From the IMG/VR virus record IMGVR_UViG_3300007072_000008, positions 1 through 64,000 of that record: a stretch of 64,000 nucleotides of DNA. The stretch is one strand, 5' to 3'. The position numbers and the translations under genes were made by a program. Below the pieces are notes generated by a model that saw only the letters and a list, made by a program, of their open reading frames with translations, did no database searches and had not been told where the DNA came from. This document shows positions 6,986-21,001 of this stretch, piece by piece. Every line of letters starts with the position of its first letter. Within the stretch, counting starts at the first letter, position 1. The stretch comes from a virus.

Positions 6986-7960
6986 CTAAACCCCTTTTGT
7001 GTTTATTTTATTTTCATCAATGTCTGCGACAGTGTTTTTTATAGCCTGTTGGCTATCTTCTATTCCGTCATTATTTAAGTCTATAAATTGAGAAGGCACG
7101 ATGGGAGTTGCTCTTTTAAATAAAGGATTCGACCTAATGGAATCTACTATGTCTTTTGTTGTATCGCTTTGTATTAACCGAACAGTGCCTGGTACCGGTC
7201 CATCCCCAAAGAAAAACTGTCTGTTTGCTATGCTCATAAGTGGTTTTTGTCCTTCTACTGTTTCGATCAATTCTTTAGTAGCTACACTTAAGGTTTTGGA
7301 TTTTCTATCCTTAAAAAACTGCACATATACAAATATACCAATTGCTAATACACTGATACCAATCACAAAATAAGGAATTAAAGCAATGGTTTGTACTAAT
7401 AATACACATACAGCTAACCCAATGGCACATACAATGCCTCCATAGATAGCTAGTTTATTGCCTTGGGAAAATATAGCGATCCCAGCGCAGATTAGCACAC
7501 CAAAGAAACAGAATGCACTCCAACCCATGATTTTCTCTCTAAATTCTTTTGTAACATTTTCTTCTGCTTTTATTCTAGCAGCTTTTTCTTCCTCATACAT
7601 CTCCTGCAATATGCTTACCCTACTGTCCGCTTCTGTTAATTGTTTTTTTATATTAAATAATTTAGAAATTATACCATCTTGTATAATTGTTTGTTCCCAG
7701 ATTTTAAGTGTATGAGAACTCATTTCTTTTTTTAGATTATCTGGTGTAATTAGATTAATTTGATTTGTTTCGGCTTTAATAGTATCTGTTGTATCTTTTA
7801 ATAATTGGGCAGAATTGTCTACGTCGTTTGTCGCATTCCCTATGGAGTCTTTAGGGTTAGAATAGTCTGATATAACCCCTTTATTACCACATCCAACCAT
7901 AAAAAAACAAAAAATAAACCCCAATAATAAAAACAATAATCTTTGAAAAGTATTTTGCAT
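6986..7960 (-). CDS. Lipoprotein with coiled coil and C-terminal transmembrane helices
   Basis: Signal peptide ending FMVG-C, heptad-rich segment, then about 3 hydrophobic helices; AGGAG SD. Confidence 0.75.
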   Translation of the reverse strand: MQNTFQRLLFLLLGFIFCFFMVGCGNKGVISDYSNPKDSIGNATNDVDNSAQLLKDTTDTIKAETNQINLITPDNLKKEMSSHTLKIWEQTIIQDGIISKLFNIKKQLTEADSRVSILQEMYEEEKAARIKAEENVTKEFREKIMGWSAFCFFGVLICAGIAIFSQGNKLAIYGGIVCAIGLAVCVLLVQTIALIPYFVIGISVLAIGIFVYVQFFKDRKSKTLSVATKELIETVEGQKPLMSIANRQFFFGDGPVPGTVRLIQSDTTKDIVDSIRSNPLFKRATPIVPSQFIDLNNDGIEDSQQAIKNTVADIDENKINTKGV

Positions 7961-13424: not shown

Positions 13425-14060
13425 CTATAAAAAATTCCACTTCCTCTGCAAAATTCCCATATACTTTATAAAATCTCCCCAACAGTGCCCTCGCTCCTGA
13501 CATGTTACTGCTTTGTGTATTACATAATTCTCTTTATCAATATTTAACCAATAAGACGGATATGCATTCACAAATATTGTTCGACATTCTAAACCGTGTT
13601 TCCTTCTGATTTGTGTACTATAATCTTCAACATAACAATGATAATTGTTAAAGTTTATATCATCAAATTTTAAGCCGTGCTTACGGTTTATTACTGCTAC
13701 ACAAGCATCAACAGTTGTTAAAATTTTAGATTCGTTAGCATTTGCCCATTCATATTTAATGAGTTTAAAATTGTTATCGTTAATCGCTCCTTCAACCCCT
13801 AATATCCCAAAATTGGGGTACTGATAAATTGTGTGTAATAAAAAATCTATAAAATTAGGACAAAAAGAAACATCTTCATGTATAAACATAATTATGTCAT
13901 TTGAAGCATTATCGATAGTTTGATTATAACTAGTAGCTGGCGGGATAGTATCTGATAAGCTAAGGAATTGATAATTATGATTATTAGAATTGTTAAGACT
14001 AGGTTCTAAGTAATTAGAAAAGGCCACAGGATTATGGCGTATAGAAGCAATAGTTAACAT
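13425..14060 (-). CDS. Glycosyltransferase family 2-like protein
   Basis: SYNQ, IIMFIHEDV, VDACV, FD...F..YHCYVEDYS pattern. Confidence 0.8.
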   Translation of the reverse strand: MLTIASIRHNPVAFSNYLEPSLNNSNNHNYQFLSLSDTIPPATSYNQTIDNASNDIIMFIHEDVSFCPNFIDFLLHTIYQYPNFGILGVEGAINDNNFKLIKYEWANANESKILTTVDACVAVINRKHGLKFDDINFNNYHCYVEDYSTQIRRKHGLECRTIFVNAYPSYWLNIDKENYVIHKAVTCQERGHCWGDFIKYMGILQRKWNFL

Positions 14061-14063
14061 AAA

Positions 14064-14153
14064 CGGAAGCGATAGGATTCGAACCTATGGTGCATCTTTA
14101 TGACACACGGGAGTTTAGCAAACTCCTGCATTAAGCCGCTCTGCCACGCTTCC
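14064..14153 (-). tRNA. tRNA-Ser(GCT)
   Basis: Cloverleaf with long variable arm, anticodon stem ggagt/actcc, GGTTCGAATCC. Confidence 0.93.
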
Positions 14154-14202
14154 CAATGTTGATGTAATCACTGAATTAATCAGCGACTGCAACCCTCGGG
14201 AA

Positions 14203-14278
14203 TGCTCCCGACCGGAATCGAACCGGCGATCTCTTCCTTGAAAGGGAAGCGATGTGAGCCAACCACATCTGCAGGAGC
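14203..14278 (-). tRNA. tRNA-Glu(TTC), atypical D-arm
   Basis: cttcc-CTTTCAA-ggaag, GGTTCGATTCC. Confidence 0.88.
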
Positions 14279-14333
14279 TAGATGCACTAGACTTTTAAAT
14301 CTAAGGTCTCCAGGTTCGTTTCTTCTCCCTAAA

Positions 14334-14410
14334 TACGACGGACAGAATTCGAACCTACAGTGAGTGTTTTTCACTCGGTCACTTTGGAGGCAAATTATAC
14401 TATCGCGTAG
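14334..14410 (-). pseudogene. Degenerate tRNA-like remnant
   Basis: T-loop GGTTCGAATT retained; no valid D or anticodon arms. Confidence 0.4.
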
Positions 14411-14414
14411 AATA

Positions 14415-14488
14415 CTGCCCTGCTAGGATTCGAACCTAGAACCTTGGGATCCAAAGTCCCCTGCGCTAACCGATTGCGCCACAGGGCA
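14415..14488 (-). tRNA. tRNA-Gln(TTG)
   Basis: ggga-CTTTGGA-tccc anticodon arm; canonical T arm. Confidence 0.93.
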
Positions 14489-14494
14489 ATTAGA

Positions 14495-14576
14495 AGAAGT
14501 CAGAGTGCATGATCCTCAGACTGTCTATTAATTAGATCCAATTCGTTTCGAACGAACTGCGGGTTTTCTGCCGCCA
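14495..14576 (-). pseudogene. Degenerate tRNA-Ser(CGA)-like element
   Basis: ttcg-TTCGAAA-cgaa anticodon arm, long variable region, non-canonical T loop. Confidence 0.4.
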
Positions 14577-14603
14577 ATTCGTATAACCGTTGCACAGCAT
14601 AAA

Positions 14604-14674
14604 CTACCCCACAAGGAATCGAACCCCGACTAAAACGTTCAGAGCGTTTCGTGCGACCATTACACTATGAGGCA
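14604..14674 (-). tRNA. tRNA-Gln(CTG)
   Basis: aaacg-CTCTGAA-cgttt, GGTTCGATTCC. Confidence 0.9.
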
Positions 14675-14683
14675 AAAGGATTA

Positions 14684-15350
14684 TTAGTATAATCCATTAA
14701 TATGTAGAACTTTATGACTTACAACAACAGAAGGATTTGCATTACCATTCCAATTTGGGATAAAAAATTCTCTACTAGTAGCTGGTTCTGTAAGTCGTTG
14801 CCAACCTGCTCTGTTTAAAATTTCTTGATATATACGGGAACGAGCATTGTTATGTTTTTTATCCTTATTCCTAAATATATGAGATCTGGTAGCATAATAA
14901 CTAATTTTTATAGGCAACCCATTAATGGACTGAAAAAATTCATACAATTTTGCAACAAGTTGCTCATTCTTTTTGTTAGCTAAATATTTTTTTCCCACAC
15001 GACTATAATCACTTACACCTTCTTTATTAGACCATTCTTGCTCTTCACAATTGCTTTCCCAGCCAAATGAAACATCGCATAACGCAAATGCATTAGAATC
15101 ATCATATAAAGACAATTCAGTATATAATGCTAAATCAATAATACGACATGCATAAGTTGCATATACCCTTCTACGAATGGTATAATCCTCATCGTAATTT
15201 ACTACCTTAGCATTGTTGAATATCTGTTCAAAACTCTTTATGGCTAAATTAATTGCTTGTACAGCATCAACACCTAACTGTCTTGTTGGTAACTGTTTTA
15301 ATCTTGGAGGTAAAAAAGATATTTTTTTTCCATATTTTAGTTTTATACAT
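14684..15350 (-). CDS. Hypothetical protein, probably frameshifted near its start (A8 run)
   Basis: Frame is open from 15358 with no in-frame ATG upstream of the track's TTG start at 15115. Removing one A at 15322-15329 joins the ATG at 15350 (MYKTKIWKKISFLPPRL...). Confidence 0.6.
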
Positions 15351-15358
15351 ATTGTTAA

Positions 15359-15703
15359 CTATTCCTTTATAATTTGCGCATATACTTTATTTGGGGCCTG
15401 CTTAAAATACTTATTCAGAGCAGGACATAACCATGCTAGGTGACCTGTATTATCTTTGTACCAATACCCTGTCATATCAGATACTTTATTATCCACCAAT
15501 GTTAAAGCAATGGTTGAACCATCAAATGGATTATTGGAAAAAAGTAGCTTTACTTTTTCATGCCCTCCGGCATACTTATCTAAAAGATCATCTGTGCCAG
15601 AAACAAGACCTTCCATTTTAAGGTCTCTTAACTCGTCATCAAAATACCAGAATCGTTCACCTTGACTATTAACAACTTTGTAGGGGTAAATCGTGTAAAT
15701 CAT
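15359..15703 (-). CDS. DUF6717-like conserved phage protein
   Basis: IYPYK...WYFDD...LLFS..PF...GYWY...WLCPAL.KYF..AP. Confidence 0.75.
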   Translation of the reverse strand: MIYTIYPYKVVNSQGERFWYFDDELRDLKMEGLVSGTDDLLDKYAGGHEKVKLLFSNNPFDGSTIALTLVDNKVSDMTGYWYKDNTGHLAWLCPALNKYFKQAPNKVYAQIIKE

Positions 15704-15780
15704 ATATGGAATGTGGTTTACTTTTACCGCGAAAATAGCCTTTTTAAACAATATACTTACGGTTCACCACAGTAAGGGAA

Positions 15781-15853
15781 TGGGCGATAAGGGATTTGAA
15801 CCCCTGACCTCTCGGATGTAGACCGAATGCTCTAGCCGCTGAGCTAATCGCCC
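15781..15853 (-). tRNA. tRNA-Val(TAC), C at position 33
   Basis: tcgg-TCTACAT-ccga; canonical D and T arms. Confidence 0.9.
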
Positions 15854-15856
15854 GGA

Positions 15857-15930
15857 TGGAGACGGTGAGAATCGAACTCACAACAGATTGGTTGCAAACC
15901 ATTCTCGCTACCCTTAGCACATGCGTCCCC
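15857..15930 (-). tRNA. tRNA-Ala(TGC), atypical D-arm
   Basis: TTTGCAA loop and G3:U70 identity pair. Confidence 0.88.
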
Positions 15931-15963
15931 GAAAATACTATTAACTTTTGATAGAGCAGTCTA

Positions 15964-16037
15964 TAGCGGCTCTGGGACTCGAACCCAGCTTGAAAGCTTA
16001 TGAGGCTTTCCAGACCACCATGGCCTTGCCAGCCGCA
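15964..16037 (-). tRNA. tRNA-Met(CAT), initiator-like 1:72 mismatch
   Basis: aaagc-CTCATAA-gcttt; U1:U72. Confidence 0.85.
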
Positions 16038-16134
16038 ATCAAATAACAGACAAGTTTTGTTGAGTTAACCATCCAATACTGGTCTGTTATATTCTCCACA
16101 TACTAACACCCTAAAAACCCTTCTTGTTCACGAT

Positions 16135-16329
16135 TTATTTTTTACTGTTTAAGCTTTTAGATTCTAACAACTCTTTGGCTAGCTCTTCAAGCTCATCTTC
16201 CCATTCATTCATAGCTTTATTATAATCTGAATCTACTTCTTCTGATAATTGTTTTATAGGTCTAAATCTCCATAAAATTTGCATAGCATTTAACTTGCTA
16301 ATTATTTCATCAACCATTTTATCATCCAT
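16135..16329 (-). CDS. Hypothetical protein
   Basis: GAGG SD, 64 aa. Confidence 0.6.
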   Translation of the reverse strand: MDDKMVDEIISKLNAMQILWRFRPIKQLSEEVDSDYNKAMNEWEDELEELAKELLESKSLNSKK

Positions 16330-16357
16330 TGATACCTCTGTTCTTTTTTTACCGCAA

Positions 16358-16612
16358 TCACTCTTCTTTAAAAATATTCTCAGTTTGTTCTGGTGTATAT
16401 TTTCGCCTGTTAATAATCTCTTTTATTTTTCTGGCAATAAAAATATGAGTATATGTATGAATCTTAGAATCCTTTTCAATTGTTTCTAAATATTCTCTTA
16501 ACTCCGCTTTTTCCTCTTTAGTTAATTTCTTCTCATTTTCTTTTAAGGAAGATAATGTGGTGGATAAAGCATTATATATCTCTGCCTTTAATGCTTTCCA
16601 AGTTCTACCCAT
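16358..16612 (-). CDS. Hypothetical protein
   Basis: 84-aa charged helical ORF. Confidence 0.6.
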   Translation of the reverse strand: MGRTWKALKAEIYNALSTTLSSLKENEKKLTKEEKAELREYLETIEKDSKIHTYTHIFIARKIKEIINRRKYTPEQTENIFKEE

Positions 16613-16640
16613 ATTATTTACCAGTCGGGTTAGAGTTAGT

Positions 16641-16970
16641 TTACCACCATAGATTCAGAAAATGCTCAGAAAATAATTTCAAACCACTTTTGACTTCTTC
16701 ATATTCTTTGTTACTTAAATCCCATGCTCCTCTGCTAACTAATTCAAATGTGCGAATCATCTTATCAAGTTTGGCATTCCAGCTTTTTTCAGTTTCTCCA
16801 TAAGGAAATCCTTTACACAATTCTTTAAATCTAACCAGTCTTGGATATACAAATTTGGCAATTGTATAATCTAAACTCCAAGTATCTTGGTCAGTCCAGC
16901 CACGCTCTTTCATTTGCCTTTTAAATAAGGCTTTTCTATTTTCTGATTGTTTTTTACAACTTTTTTTCAT
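16641..16970 (-). CDS. Conserved phage hypothetical protein (WSLDYTIA...PRL..F family)
   Basis: RGW.D.DTWSLD...LDKMI..FE...GL.LF..HF.NLW pattern common in large phages; ATG at 16970 chosen. Confidence 0.75.
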   Translation of the reverse strand: MKKSCKKQSENRKALFKRQMKERGWTDQDTWSLDYTIAKFVYPRLVRFKELCKGFPYGETEKSWNAKLDKMIRTFELVSRGAWDLSNKEYEEVKSGLKLFSEHFLNLWW

Positions 16971-17198
16971 TAATACCAAAGTCCTATCATCGCTGTTATA
17001 AGCAGACTTGATAATACTACTACCTTTATAACACCAACAGTTACACATGAATAAAAAATCCAATTGGGAATATAAATACACTTACATCCGTAACTATCTT
17101 TGCAAGCAACACAATTTCTTGATTCCATGTTTTCTCCTTTTGTAAGAATCACGTTCCATCTACTTCATTTAGCTATACAAACCCTTATTAAGAATATA

Positions 17199-17390
17199 TT
17201 AAGTTTTTTGCAGACTTTTGGTTTTTTTTATAGCTCTGAAATATGAATTTATAGCTGCTTCTGCCGCTTTAAACTGGCATCTATAGTCTTTTTCAGAAGT
17301 ATAAATAGGATCAGTTTTTTTATCAGGTACTACATAAGCCCTGAATCTTACACCAAAAGGTTTAACTAATTTTTCTAATTTAATATTCAT
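17199..17390 (-). CDS. Hypothetical protein
   Basis: GGAG SD before the ATG at 17390. Confidence 0.55.
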   Translation of the reverse strand: MNIKLEKLVKPFGVRFRAYVVPDKKTDPIYTSEKDYRCQFKAAEAAINSYFRAIKKTKSLQKT

Positions 17391-17489
17391 AATTTTCTCC
17401 AAATATAATATAAAATGTCCACAGTAGAAATCGAACCGACAATACTTCTGTGATATGCAATTCGCCATGCGGACGTTATTTAAATACAC

Positions 17490-17900
17490 CTATAGGGTTG
17501 AACACATATGCTTTTTATTTCCCAATGTTGCATGGAAAGTTTTTCTCAAGCCTACGGGCGGCTGAATATAAAGGCTTTCATTAGGTAATCCTAACTCTTC
17601 CCTTATTTCTTCTAGCCGCTTTGACCATATATCTATCCAATAATAAACTTCACTATTCCTTATTTCATTACTGTATATAAAATCTACTATTTCCCCCTCA
17701 TACTTTCCCCAAAACTCCATTTTAGGCTCTACAATTTCTTTTCTTACTACAGAAATGTGAGCGTCATACATTTGTCTCTGCAAATAATTTGATATTGATT
17801 TTGGCAGTAGTTTTCTGTAATAATTAACAAGATCCTGTTCTATGTCCAGAACAACATTAGTCTTGCCATATCGAAGTTTTCTTTGTGACTGATAAATCAT
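17490..17900 (-). CDS. 2H phosphoesterase superfamily protein
   Basis: Two H-x-[S/T] motifs (AHISV, FHATL) about 75 aa apart with LEEIREELGL between them. Confidence 0.75.
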   Translation of the reverse strand: MIYQSQRKLRYGKTNVVLDIEQDLVNYYRKLLPKSISNYLQRQMYDAHISVVRKEIVEPKMEFWGKYEGEIVDFIYSNEIRNSEVYYWIDIWSKRLEEIREELGLPNESLYIQPPVGLRKTFHATLGNKKHMCSTL

Positions 17901-17903
17901 AAC

Positions 17904-17963
17904 ATCGAACCCACTTGTTTCTGTTTAGAAAACAGACGCCTAATCCAGTCTAGCCACAGGAGC
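17904..17963 (-). pseudogene. 3'-truncated tRNA-Arg(TCT)
   Basis: Intact 5' acceptor strand, D arm, tctgt-TTTCTAA-acaga and GGTTCGAT, then runs directly into the 2H gene start. Confidence 0.7.
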
Positions 17964-18110
17964 AATGTCTTTCTTTTTTACCGCAACAAACTTGTAAAGC
18001 CCAATAACGGAATCGATCTTACCACGATTGCGTGATACCCTTTTACCAATCTGTCTAAACAAGATGCAGACGGAAAACACGCAGATCAGGTATGCAATTA
18101 CGCACTAACG

Positions 18111-18186
18111 GGTGTGCGACGGGATTCGAACCCGCGAATAACATGAACCACAATCATGCGCGTTAACCAACTTCGCCACGCACACC
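18111..18186 (-). tRNA. tRNA-His(GTG)
   Basis: catga-TTGTGGT-tcatg; G-1 present. Confidence 0.93.
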
Positions 18187-18455
18187 AATTATACTTCTTC
18201 ATTATAACTTTACCTGCAAAGGTTGTTACTACACAATATAATAATCAATCGATCTAACTTTTTAGATTTTTTCTCCCGGTTTTGTATACAACTAATATTG
18301 GCCAAGAATATTACAATATCGCCATATTTTAGGGGATGCTATGCTGATTTTTTTTACGGTAAACAACAGCCCTTTCTTGCGTTCTGATGCCCATTGAGGT
18401 TCAAAGACAATTACCTGTCCACCCTGAAACTGTTTCTGTTTTCTGATCAAACATA

Positions 18456-18527
18456 TCGGGGTGACAGGGATCGAACCTGCGACTTCAAGTTCCCAAAACT
18501 TGCGGACTACCTCTGTCCTACACCCCG
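18456..18527 (-). tRNA. tRNA-Pro(TGG)
   Basis: cggggtg acceptor stem; caagt-TTTGGGA-acttg. Confidence 0.93.
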
Positions 18528-18581
18528 AACATTGCAAACAATAACAAACACTTTCACCAGATTAGCATCCCATAATTCAAG

Positions 18582-18653
18582 CTCGCAGAGCAGGATTCGA
18601 ACCTGCGACCATTCGGTTAACAGCCGAACGCACTACCGCTGTGCTATCTGCGA
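18582..18653 (-). tRNA. tRNA-Asn(GTT)
   Basis: ttcgg-CTGTTAA-ccgaa. Confidence 0.93.
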
Positions 18654-18654
18654 A

Positions 18655-18727
18655 AGCCAGAGGGGGGACTCGAACCCCCGGTTACGGGTTTACAAAACCC
18701 GCGCTGTAGCCGCTGAGCCACTCTGGC
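18655..18727 (-). tRNA. tRNA-Thr(TGT)
   Basis: cgggt-TTTGTAA-acccg; gcc/ggct acceptor. Confidence 0.92.
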
Positions 18728-18835
18728 ATTTCACATTCTAGTGCCTCTTTCATGCTATAATATTTCTTTGATTGAGCAATTATCTTTTCCGACAAGGTAA
18801 ATTGCAACAATTTTATTCATAGTAGTTTCCAAACA

Positions 18836-18908
18836 AGACCAGGGTGGGATTCGAACCCACGTATAGTGGATTTGCAATCCACTTCCTTAGCCACTCGGAC
18901 ACCTGATC
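18836..18908 (-). tRNA. tRNA-Cys(GCA)
   Basis: gtgga-TTGCAAA-tccac. Confidence 0.93.
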
Positions 18909-18914
18909 GTACAA

Positions 18915-18986
18915 TAGGCTTAAGTGGAGTCGAACCACTAATTGTTTCTTATCAGGAAACTGGTATAACCGTTTACCTATAAGCCT
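18915..18986 (-). tRNA. tRNA-Ile(GAT)
   Basis: gtttc-CTGATAA-gaaac. Confidence 0.9.
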
Positions 18987-18995
18987 ATGGTAACT

Positions 18996-19012
18996 TATTC
19001 ACTTGTCAAAGA
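18996..19012 (-). promoter_or_regulatory. boxA-like antitermination motif (TCTTTGACAAGTGAATA)
   Basis: Resembles the rRNA-leader boxA, sits ~10 nt before the first tRNA, and is repeated at ~19891-19907. Confidence 0.6.
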
Positions 19013-19017
19013 TCCTA

Positions 19018-19050
19018 ACAAAAAACCCAGACATTTTTTTTTGTCTGGGG
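19018..19050 (-). terminator. Intrinsic terminator (attenuator) ahead of the tRNA array
   Basis: CCCAGACA / A-rich loop / TGTCTGGG followed by TTTTTT on the minus strand. Confidence 0.8.
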
Positions 19051-19078
19051 TAAAAAGCACTTTTATTAATAGTACTCT

Positions 19079-19171
19079 TCACCCAGACGTAAAATCAGTG
19101 TGGGGGTTACATGTTGTTAGCATATTATTAATCGACATACGCATACTATATCCGTTTTTTCTACACACCAT
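19079..19171 (-). CDS. Putative attenuator leader peptide MVCRKNGYSMRMSINNMLTTCNPHTDFTSG
   Basis: GAGGGAG SD 6 nt upstream; last codons (TCT GGG TGA) overlap the antiterminator strand. Not in the ORF track. Confidence 0.7.
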   Translation of the reverse strand: MVCRKNGYSMRMSINNMLTTCNPHTDFTSG

Positions 19172-19586
19172 TAAAAACTCCCTCTGTTTTTTTTTTTTAC
19201 CGCGATTCATTTTGCATTACCAGTTGTTCACTGGTTTTTCATTCTTATAGTTGATACAAGGTTTTTTAATGATATATTATATAAATTTAATTTATATAAT
19301 CTTCCTTTACATTTGTGATAAAATGCACCAAAGATTTGAACATGCCCTTTTATACAGAACATTTATTCTAAAATAATGCCTTTACCAGACAACATTTCAT
19401 GTATCTCTTTCCTAAGTTCAATCAGTATATTTGTTGTTTTTCATCTAATTCGGAATATTTTACTAAATTCCTCAATTTATTGTCAATGTTATAAACAACG
19501 TTTTTCCACAAAGTCCCATCAAGAGCATCCCTATGTTTTTGCTGCTCTTCTAGTAAATTAAATATCAGTGTTACTTGCATAAATGC

Positions 19587-19811
19587 TTAACCTTTTACTA
19601 AGTTACTTAAGTATATTGTTTTTTCTAGTGTTTTTATTAGTTTTCTTAAATATTTTTCTAGCTCGTACACATGATCAAAATTACTTTTACCGTGCCAAGC
19701 TTCTTCTGAAGCCGATGCAATCAGTGGATCAACTAGCATTTTTAACCGCTTTTCCATCTCTACAAGACTATCTATAGAAGTTTGATAGACTTCTTTTTTA
19801 CCATATCCCAT
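19587..19811 (-). CDS. Hypothetical protein
   Basis: 74-aa ORF from the ATG at 19811. Confidence 0.5.
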   Translation of the reverse strand: MGYGKKEVYQTSIDSLVEMEKRLKMLVDPLIASASEEAWHGKSNFDHVYELEKYLRKLIKTLEKTIYLSNLVKG

Positions 19812-19890
19812 ATCAGTTTCCAATTTAACAAATTTCTTCTCGAAGCAATTAGCATCTTCTATTAAGTCAGTTCTGTTTCAACTTGATGTA

Positions 19891-20055
19891 TATTCACTTG
19901 TCAAAGAATATCCTAACAAAACCAGACATTTGTGGTGAAAAGTACTTTTATTAATAATACTCTTCACACAGACGTAAAACCAGTATTAATTGATGTGCAT
20001 ACTATATCTGTTCTTTTTACACACCATTGAAAACCACCTACTTTTTTTACCGCGA
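19891..20055 (-). repeat. Degenerate duplicate of the tRNA-array leader (18996-19205)
   Basis: Collinear similarity including boxA, tcctaacaaaa, ttttattaata.tactcttcac.cagacgtaaaa, actatatc.gtt, acacaccatt and ttttaccgcga; terminator loop and arm are deleted. Confidence 0.85.
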
Positions 20056-20109
20056 AACTTTTTCGCGGTAACTATTTTATTCAGCAGGTCTACATGATAT
20101 TGTTTTTAA

Positions 20110-20292
20110 TTAATTTTTAAGATTGAACAATTCCAACTGTTTTGGATTTTCATTATCTATCAATACAGTATAACCCAATGCAGTGAGAACTTTTTTTAAG
20201 GCTGTTATAACACAATCATCACGGTCTATATAACATTGTATAGAGCCTGTGTCAATAGCAATAGAAGATAATGTGGGGTGTATGTAAATCAT
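20110..20292 (-). CDS. Hypothetical protein
   Basis: ATG at 20292, with CCGATA 9 nt upstream. Confidence 0.55.
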   Translation of the reverse strand: MIYIHPTLSSIAIDTGSIQCYIDRDDCVITALKKVLTALGYTVLIDNENPKQLELFNLKN

Positions 20293-20374
20293 ATTAATAT
20301 ATATCGGACAAATTACTAAAAACAAATTACTAAAAACAAGGATAACCATGCAAACTTTTTAATATACAGCATAT

Positions 20375-21001
20375 ATGAATTGGTATAAGTATTCAATGCC
20401 GCAGATAAAAGATGTAAAATCTTCTGTAGATCAAATTTGTATGAAAATAAAACAAATTCAAGGAGTAAAAGATGTTTTTTTATTTGGTTCTTATGCAGCA
20501 AATATTAATAACCCATCCGCAATAGTAAAGGATGTTGATATCATTGCAGTTACGGAATTTAACACTGGTGATTTATTAGCAATTGATAACACAGCTTATT
20601 CGGCTTTGAAAATCAGTCCAAAAAATCTGGAAGAAGAGGGTTTTTGTAAAGAGGCTGTCAGTTTTACAAAGCAGTTTTTGTCATATGGGAACTATAATAT
20701 AGACCACTGGGCATTATCTGCTAGTAAGCAATTGTTACATTGGGGTGATATGCCAGAGACAAAAGAAGAATGGCAAGAAATACACATTAAAGCAGAGCAA
20801 GAAGCTAATGTCTTAACTGGAATTTCAAAAAATGATCTAAAAACAGCAACTAATGCACAAAAAAAGGAATGGAAAGAAATATTCGACAAATATATTAATA
20901 GATATGTGCAAAATAAAAATAGTGGCTGGTGTTTATCAGAAAACAAATTTAATTCTATAAAAAAAGATATTATTAAATGGACGATTTGGCAGAACAACTA
21001 G
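20375..21001 (+). CDS. Pol-beta family minimal nucleotidyltransferase with MNWYK tag
   Basis: VFLFGSYA...KDVDII (GS and DxD motifs), third Asp in NIDHW. Confidence 0.8.
   Translation: MNWYKYSMPQIKDVKSSVDQICMKIKQIQGVKDVFLFGSYAANINNPSAIVKDVDIIAVTEFNTGDLLAIDNTAYSALKISPKNLEEEGFCKEAVSFTKQFLSYGNYNIDHWALSASKQLLHWGDMPETKEEWQEIHIKAEQEANVLTGISKNDLKTATNAQKKEWKEIFDKYINRYVQNKNSGWCLSENKFNSIKKDIIKWTIWQNN

Follow-up and report, generated by a model that had tools for sequence, protein, structure and literature searches.

We analysed a 64,000-nt stretch of viral DNA, bases 1-64,000 of the 73,277-bp virus contig IMGVR_UViG_3300007072_000008 (hereafter the window; approximately 33% GC, terminal repeat absent), which comes from a sediment metagenome assembly. 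The minus strand of the window carries a unit of 13 tRNA genes, and our main finding is that this unit is probably headed by a translation-coupled transcription attenuator, which is followed by a boxA element of the type found in the leaders of ribosomal RNA operons (rrn). Taken by itself, the window gives the attenuator reading moderate support only. The stronger evidence is provided by unrelated phages that share the layout and were found via the 17-nt boxA sequence, and for the class as a whole we hold this reading with more confidence than for the single locus.

An earlier sequence-only reading of this DNA had proposed, in minus-strand order, a Shine-Dalgarno (SD) site, a 30-codon open reading frame (ORF), an antiterminator, a terminator ending in six T residues (T6), a boxA-like element and tRNA-Ile, and all of these lie where it had placed them (Table 1). 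The SD site of the leader resembles, in both type and spacing, those of the long ORFs of the contig (AAGGAG/GGGAG-type sites). An in-frame ATG at 19210 would extend the leader to 43 codons, but it lacks an SD site. The leader stop codon falls within the 5' strand of the antiterminator.

Table 1. Features of the tRNA unit and of the region upstream of it, in window coordinates.
Feature	Position	Strand	Description
Decayed paralogue of the whole module	20063-19891	minus	E 4.6e-23; 860 nt upstream
Shine-Dalgarno site	19184-19178	minus	GAGGGAG; 6 nt 5' of leader ATG
Leader ORF	19171-19079	minus	MVCRKNGYSMRMSINNMLTTCNPHTDFTSG; ATG at 19171, 30 codons, TGA 19081-19079
Proposed regulatory codons 14-24	19100..19132	minus	ATT AAT AAT ATG CTA ACA ACA TGT AAC CCC CAC
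Antiterminator hairpin	19088-19043	minus	5' strand 19088-19071, 3' strand 19061-19043
Terminator, 5' strand	19049-19042	minus	CCCAGACA, followed by A8 loop
Terminator, 3' strand	19033-19026	minus	TGTCTGGG
Terminator, T6	19025-19020	minus	
rrn-type boxA	19012-18996	minus	TCTTTGACAAGTGAATA; 17-mer, 8 nt before tRNA-Ile, on tRNA strand
tRNA unit	14064..18987	minus	13 tRNA genes in three groups, small ORFs in between
tRNA-Ile(GAT)	18987-18914	minus	First of the 13 tRNAs
tRNA group 1 (first cluster)		minus	Ile, Cys, Thr, Asn, Pro, His
tRNA group 2		minus	Met, Ala, Val
tRNA group 3		minus	Gln, Gln, Glu, Ser
Terminator-like site	14038-14023		3' of last tRNA

Folding of the leader recovered the two alternative structures that had been predicted. 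The antiterminator has 18 pairs and one bulge (-24.4 kcal/mol) and contains the terminator 5' strand in its own 3' strand, and the terminator has an 8-bp stem with five GC pairs (-13.3 kcal/mol); the two are mutually exclusive, CCCAGAC being common to both. The 7-mer GTCTGGG/CCCAGAC occurs at four sites on both strands of the 73,277-bp contig, and the three of them that lie inside 19026-19088 form the two overlapping helices. Pairing of the upstream region with the terminator 5' strand reaches -13.8 kcal/mol, against a mean of -7.0 ± 1.9 for dinucleotide shuffles, and was equalled in two of 1000 shuffles; the 218-nt region as a whole folds with z = -2.59. The RNA switch is clearly non-random. 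A generic scan of positions 13500-21000 returned nine terminator-like sites including this one, where 4.3 ± 2.2 were expected.

We then folded the leader with a ribosome mask, an equilibrium model with a fixed footprint in which 29 nt are masked around each A-site codon. A transcript cut at the terminator loop stands for the point at which the choice is made. Its minimum-energy fold is the antiterminator wherever the A site lies within codons 2-24, and seven of the eight terminator 5'-strand bases are then sequestered. With the A site at codons 25-26 the number of sequestered bases drops to two and then to none, and in the full sequence the complete 8-pair terminator forms once the ribosome has reached codon 27, a later codon or the stop. 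The run ACA ACA TGT AAC CCC CAC closes with codon 24, a His codon. Because the switch point coincides with the end of this run, the classical attenuator geometry, which had been claimed from the position of the stop codon inside the antiterminator 5' strand, holds, with the fold changing between codons 24 and 26-27.

We infer from this arrangement that the leader is translated, that ribosome and polymerase are coupled, that the outcome is either termination or read-through, and that Nus factors are recruited. Transcription would arrive from upstream of the leader and a ribosome would translate the 30 codons. Smooth translation to codon 27 or beyond, or to the UGA, would cover the antiterminator 5' strand, the CCCAGACA/TGTCTGGG-U6 terminator would form, and RNA polymerase would halt 32 nt before tRNA-Ile. 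If the ribosome were slowed at codons 14-24, which include codons for Ile, Asn, Thr, Cys, Pro and His and thus name the six tRNAs encoded first, the antiterminator would form first and the polymerase would read through. It would then transcribe boxA, host NusB/NusE would probably make it processive, and it would cross approximately 5 kb of mostly untranslated tRNA genes. The net effect would be a feedback in which phage tRNAs are made when their codons are decoded slowly. Depletion of host tRNAs by an anticodon nuclease as the trigger is speculation, and any cause of slow decoding would be equally effective; such a trigger fits current ideas on phage tRNAs, as presented in PMC10264068.

The position of the hairpin bears directly on the source of transcription. 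The gap from T6 to tRNA-Ile measures 32 nt (19020 to 18987), of which boxA fills 17 nt, and it holds no usable -10. A promoter would not fit between T6 and tRNA-Ile; the array must therefore be transcribed through the hairpin, and the promoter downstream of the hairpin that the sequence-only reading had named as the finding that would overturn it is absent. The TTGACA within boxA was considered as the -35 of a promoter in this window and rejected: no -10 lies at 16-18 nt from it in either copy of the module (the second copy is described below), and transcription from such a promoter would start inside tRNA-Ile.

In order to compare the leader with the array, codons were matched to anticodons under strict wobble, by which CCC is unread by tRNA-Pro(UGG). 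Eight of the 11 codons at positions 14-24 are cognate to tRNAs of the first cluster and cover five of its six anticodons; 27 of 146,488 equal-sized segments of the contig match the first cluster as well as these codons do. By itself, the codon match of this window is suggestive, not decisive. For the earlier claim that the leader run T, T, C, N, P, H names the tRNAs that follow Ile in the first cluster, the match is modest and controls come close to it. The accompanying claim that codon order follows gene order did not hold up: such an order is not seen in the other phages with the layout, and the likeness is therefore probably a coincidence.

The same layout had been expected ahead of tRNA arrays in relatives of this phage; no relatives were found, but unrelated phages have it. 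In two viral lineages a hairpin, a T-run, TT(T/A)GG, boxA, 10-25 nt and the first tRNA follow one another (the search pattern for this junction gave five matches, one of them bacterial). The first lineage comprises L043, L056, L268 and L291 together with a diverged relative, L269, and the second comprises L071, L259 and L262. Both the L043 and the L071 lineages also have a sigma-70-like promoter, a short ORF, and an antiterminator overlapping the terminator 5' strand. The leaders of the unrelated phages are non-homologous. In L262, which belongs to a lineage with the terminator-T-run-boxA-tRNA junction of the window, the leader MKQNLSSSLSCLYLSLSNRALTLQG precedes an array of Cys, Leu (four), Tyr and Ser (four) tRNAs; 13 of 13 consecutive codons are cognate and all ten anticodons are covered. 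In L043, which has the junction of the window as well, nine of ten codons of the leader MNNKIVHQVIWHVITFRGKGC are cognate to an array of Trp (two), Val (two), His, Ile (two) and Met(CAT) (two), with six of six anticodons covered, and the corresponding figures for L269 are ten of 11 codons and six of six anticodons. In each of these three phages the leader is the only segment that reaches its score (among 25,282 segments for L262, 13,964 for L043 and 22,716 for L269). Between L043 and L269 the leader has changed from TTC to TCC, which is non-synonymous, and the terminator strand from CTGAG to CTGGG; this amounts to a compensatory change from U-A to C-G in the antiterminator, and the inner stem of the terminator has been rebuilt but retained.

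A second detector, independent of boxA and of terminators, gave three further candidates: a Leu-rich leader, MKNASLLSLSLLLLS, ahead of seven Leu tRNAs (L291); the leader MLRYQWKSNNSFAPPVREVASM ahead of Asn, Phe, Trp, Tyr, Asn, Gln, Asn, Ser, Ala, Ala and Ser tRNAs (L032); and a Thr/Gly-rich leader ahead of Gly, Gly and Thr tRNAs (L041). Each of the three has a terminator together with an antiterminator that is lost after the masked ribosome passes the matched codons. We calibrated the codon match by taking the best segment over all short ORFs within 400 nt upstream of the start of a tRNA cluster. Among 60 non-redundant tRNA-cluster starts, six gave p < 1e-4, compared with none of 60 antisense controls and one of 300 controls with swapped tRNA sets. 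When labels are swapped among the phages, each leader best fits its own array with the exception of the Leu leader of L291, which also has Ser codons and fits the Leu and Ser set of L262. Antiterminators as good as the real one appeared in 29, 8 and 0 of 1000 shuffles for L043, L291 and L262, respectively, and the shuffle test is significant for these three and for the window, whose codon match is weaker than those of L262 and L043. A codon-matched ORF in L006/L059 (p 3.5e-6), in which no canonical terminator was seen, is not counted as a confirmed case.

Two further observations were made in these phages. A tRNA with anticodon CTA (labelled 'Pyl' by ARAGORN; it reads amber) lies downstream of the Cys/Leu/Tyr/Ser array in L071 (approximately 7252-7323) and in L262, and may be a suppressor or a sign of stop-codon recoding. 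Additionally, in the L262/L071 leader and the Leu leader of L291 the promoter -10 lies only 6-7 nt before the ATG, so that these leader peptides may come from leaderless mRNAs.

The boxA element was traced in bacteria and in viruses. Of the 120 bacterial loci listed, at least 30 have the identical 17-mer ahead of the 16S 5' region, at a distance of 77-511 nt, and Rfam places small subunit (SSU) rRNA just downstream of it in all three loci tested (L078, L095, L118). Because this site recurs upstream of 16S rRNA in bacteria, the 17-mer of the window is, as judged from its sequence, a genuine rrn-leader boxA. Antitermination leaders of rrn operons consist of a boxB hairpin, boxA and boxC, and act with NusB/NusE, NusA, NusG and SuhB. 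According to PMC6614797, the E. coli boxA recruits NusB/NusE, upon which the polymerase becomes Rho-resistant on long untranslated RNAs, and rrn leaders normally have a boxB-type hairpin just before boxA; the bacterial loci with the 17-mer likewise give examples of a hairpin in this place. Among viral contigs, the exact 17-mer occurs in 76, of which 16 have a tRNA on the same strand within 500 nt and one has a nearby tRNA on the opposite strand. A relaxed pattern (T5, a gap of 1-10 nt and the opening 13 nt of boxA) gave 63 loci in viral contigs, and since none of the 51 new ones holds a tRNA, these look like chance or coding matches. A scan of metagenomes for T5 and the 17-mer gave 44 loci, the new ones being only members of the L043/L071 lineages, L269 and arrays with an internal boxA.

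The 17-mer is also found in other settings. In nine viral contigs of a single phage family (L008, L018, L021, L024, L027, L031, L034, L049, L068) its TTGACA stands 17 nt before TAAGAT or TATGAT, and there the 17-mer looks like a sigma-70 promoter and not like a boxA RNA element. Exact boxA sequences lie between the genes of long phage tRNA arrays in L005, L006, L022, L032, L033, L035, L041 and L288; such arrays reach 30 tRNAs, and a small hairpin often precedes boxA by 1-3 nt, in the order boxB-boxA.

Upstream of the module lies its decayed paralogue (Table 1). The two copies, the only ones in 73 kb, share 68% identity over 221 nt. The paralogue has an SD-like AGGTGG, an ATG at 20027 and a 13-codon ORF with its stop at 19988-19986; it retains the A-run and the first 11 codons (with four base changes), the ATGTCTGG-T-run, and the exact boxA (19907-19891). 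The inner stem of its antiterminator is kept via three pair-preserving changes (C-G to U·G, U·G to U-A and G·U to G-C), which are valid on the minus-strand RNA only. The paralogue has lost 27 nt containing the regulatory run and 10 nt containing the terminator 5' strand, and the genes downstream of it are small protein ORFs, not tRNAs. We read it as a duplicated attenuator that appears to have decayed into a constitutive leader. Unrelated plus-strand hairpins with T-rich tails lie at 20047-20071 and 19219-19235, each at the upstream edge (in the minus-strand sense) of one copy of the module, and may stop antisense transcription or mark the borders of a cassette.

Several observations weigh against attenuation at this locus. 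The promoter candidates, at 19392-19365 and 19486-19457, are consensus matches only. Of the two hairpins the terminator is much the less stable, and the antiterminator needs no ribosome in order to form; by default the switch would thus be ON, and termination would require tight coupling of ribosome and polymerase. There is no clear 1:2 'pause' hairpin in the window, and an untranslated transcript is therefore predicted to read through. A branch-migrated hybrid, with 14 antiterminator pairs and a 6-bp partial terminator, is nearly isoenergetic. As for the codons, CCC is cognate to tRNA-Pro(UGG) only under four-way wobble, with which coverage becomes six of six anticodons; decoding of CCC by this tRNA is known in some bacteria. 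Five of the 13 anticodons of the unit (Ala, Gln twice, Glu, Pro) have no strictly cognate codon in the leader. The best calibrated codon p of the window is 3.4e-4, and p < 1e-3 was also seen among the controls, for four of the 60 antisense ones and for 13 of the 300 with swapped tRNA sets. In the GC-rich L032 and L041 the crude antiterminator shuffle test is non-significant (425 and 143 of 1000, respectively). In the paralogue the inner hairpin, the start of the ORF and boxA have persisted without the regulatory run or the terminator, so selection on the shared parts need not concern attenuation. Finally, the collections searched gave no relative with which to compare the ORF and the pairing within the lineage.

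Some of these points are also what one would expect if the locus were a constitutive terminator with a leader and no translational sensing. In that case the hairpin and T6 would end or dampen the transcription of upstream small genes, a fixed fraction of polymerases, stabilised by boxA, would read through, and the short ORF would be incidental or a small-protein gene. The codon match of the window, which is within reach of controls, agrees with this explanation, as do the paralogue, with its ORF start and hairpin but no terminator, and the boxB-type hairpin that normally precedes boxA in rrn leaders (PMC6614797). We nevertheless consider it unlikely, because it leaves unexplained why a rare 7-mer is present three times and makes up two exclusive helices, why the stop codon falls within the antiterminator strand, why the switch point is the last array-matched codon, and why unrelated phages with the same junction have strongly codon-matched leaders.

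A real antiterminator/terminator pair, and an inner stem conserved in the paralogue by pair-preserving changes on the minus strand only, would also suit an RNA switch worked by a protein, a small RNA or a tRNA whose binding stabilises or destabilises the antiterminator (of the T-box or PyrR/TRAP type), for which the ORF would be irrelevant. However, no Rfam family, T-box included, matches the leader (18988-19205) at E <= 1, and a scan of 13500-20500 at the same threshold gave matches of the tRNA clan only, the T-box model again giving none. The SD and ATG are well placed, the footprint geometry fits a ribosome, and in the analogous loci it is a reading frame, not an aptamer, that carries the codon matching, all of which makes this kind of switch improbable here. 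Promoter-stem-loop cassettes are known from T4-type phages. It is just as improbable that the module is a repeated mobile or recombination cassette whose copies are remnants with an accidental attenuator look: two copies do lie 860 nt apart with the identity given above, each flanked by a different hairpin resembling a plus-strand terminator, but there are just two in 73 kb, what one of them lacks is precisely the regulatory run and the terminator strand, as if one switch had decayed, and the TTGACA of neither has a sigma-70 -10 at usable spacing.

Leader-peptide attenuators are known from the trp, his, leu and phe operons and, in multivalent form, from thr and ilvGMEDA. The element described here resembles these in its short translated ORF with regulatory codons that closely precede the antiterminator 5' strand, in its exclusive hairpins and U-run, and in a stop codon whose position lets a ribosome that completes the leader block the antiterminator. 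It differs from them in that its targets would be tRNAs and not enzymes, so that what is sensed and what is made would be molecules of one kind; in that the leader samples many amino acids with one or two codons each in place of a run of one residue; in its occurrence in a phage; and in the lack of a clear 1:2 pause hairpin. The tRNase VapC4 is said, in work by Barth et al. from 2021, to engage the cysteine-responsive attenuators of mycobacteria. These attenuators are leaderless short ORFs (bioRxiv 10.1101/834739). They are alike in that short ORFs rich in particular codons reportedly convey to the genes behind them how fast decoding proceeds or how available a tRNA is, and differ in being bacterial, in sensing a single amino acid and in having protein-coding targets.

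The locus shares with rrn leaders the identical boxA 17-mer, a hairpin before it (PMC6614797) and a long untranslated transcript behind it. Unlike in rrn leaders, boxA here heads a phage tRNA array and is preceded by a full intrinsic terminator with T6, 13 nt upstream. In Anabaena PCC 7120 a silent 26-gene trn operon is induced by translational stress (PMC8421152; PMC10272220) and is controlled by the repressor TrcR (PMC10272220). It is the nearest inducible tRNA array in print, an array that stays silent until translation is disturbed, but it is under repressor control and lies on a bacterial plasmid, not in a phage; the main text of PMC8421152 does not contain 'attenuat', 'leader' or 'terminator'. 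Our searches of the full-text literature gave no description of phage tRNA genes controlled by a leader peptide, in agreement with the sequence-only reading, which was not aware of one for a phage; an older or supplementary description may exist. Leader-peptide attenuation is a known kind of control, while the tRNA target and the logic of sensing are new, and the boxA directly behind a terminator and the decayed paralogue are additional observations of this locus. The tRNA-Phe genes of E. coli may have attenuator-like leaders. Such leaders are not mentioned in PMC3082878.

A broader reading, to which we would give an even chance, is that phages, and especially large ones, meter their own tRNA supply by a general system. 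A leader with approximately one codon per encoded tRNA would then stand as a gate ahead of each tRNA block, and shortage of any single tRNA, whether from codon-usage mismatch, host shut-off or an anticodon-nuclease defence, would open the block. In some lineages, including this one, a boxA mimicking that of the host would then lock the read-through polymerase into an rRNA-style processive mode. The leader would sense the abundance of tRNAs and not that of an amino acid, and would provide an inherent defence against immunity aimed at tRNAs. An attenuator with a leader that names the tRNAs of its own array would show that phages regulate their tRNA genes by demand, with slow decoding of the corresponding codons as the signal, and classical attenuation would extend from amino-acid supply to tRNA supply. 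The purpose of phage tRNAs has been debated for decades, mainly between codon compensation and escape from anticodon nucleases (PMC10264068), and this debate would become testable; annotators, in turn, would have a means to predict the tRNAs that are limiting to a phage. The boxA link points to a borrowing of the host rRNA antitermination machinery by phages for their tRNA arrays.

The sequence-only reading had also listed decayed Arg and Ser-CGA genes as members of the array. ARAGORN with a relaxed threshold (-ps80) does report low-score tRNA-like candidates on the minus strand for Arg(TCT) at 17882-17959 and Ser(CGA) at 14493-14582, as well as for Phe(GAA) at 16147-16219 and Trp(CCA) at 14334-14421, and three of these four would decode the leader codons AGA, TTT and TCG. 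They appear at the relaxed threshold only, however, and plus-strand false positives arise at the same setting. The neighbouring genes belong, by PHROGs and Pfam, to families of unknown function and to class II ribonucleotide reductase; a match of one neighbour to the nucleotidyltransferase domain PF01909 is below Pfam's own cut-off.

Searches for relatives of the locus covered several collections. With positions 18700-19500 as query, blastn against phage GenBank records gave zero matches, and tblastn with a neighbouring 721-aa protein gave a single match in one record, at 26% identity. No related locus was found among viral contigs via the 136-aa and 721-aa proteins, a search of 5.8 billion proteins recovered the query alone, and searches for the exact terminator pattern and for the conserved inner-hairpin pattern each gave no match. 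Contigs from two DNA runs are identical to the region wherever they cover it, with no sequence variation. Additionally, a 166-nt contig identical to positions 19155-19320 of the window occurs in a run of a different study and with a different habitat label (X2), which indicates that the same or a near-identical phage occurs elsewhere.

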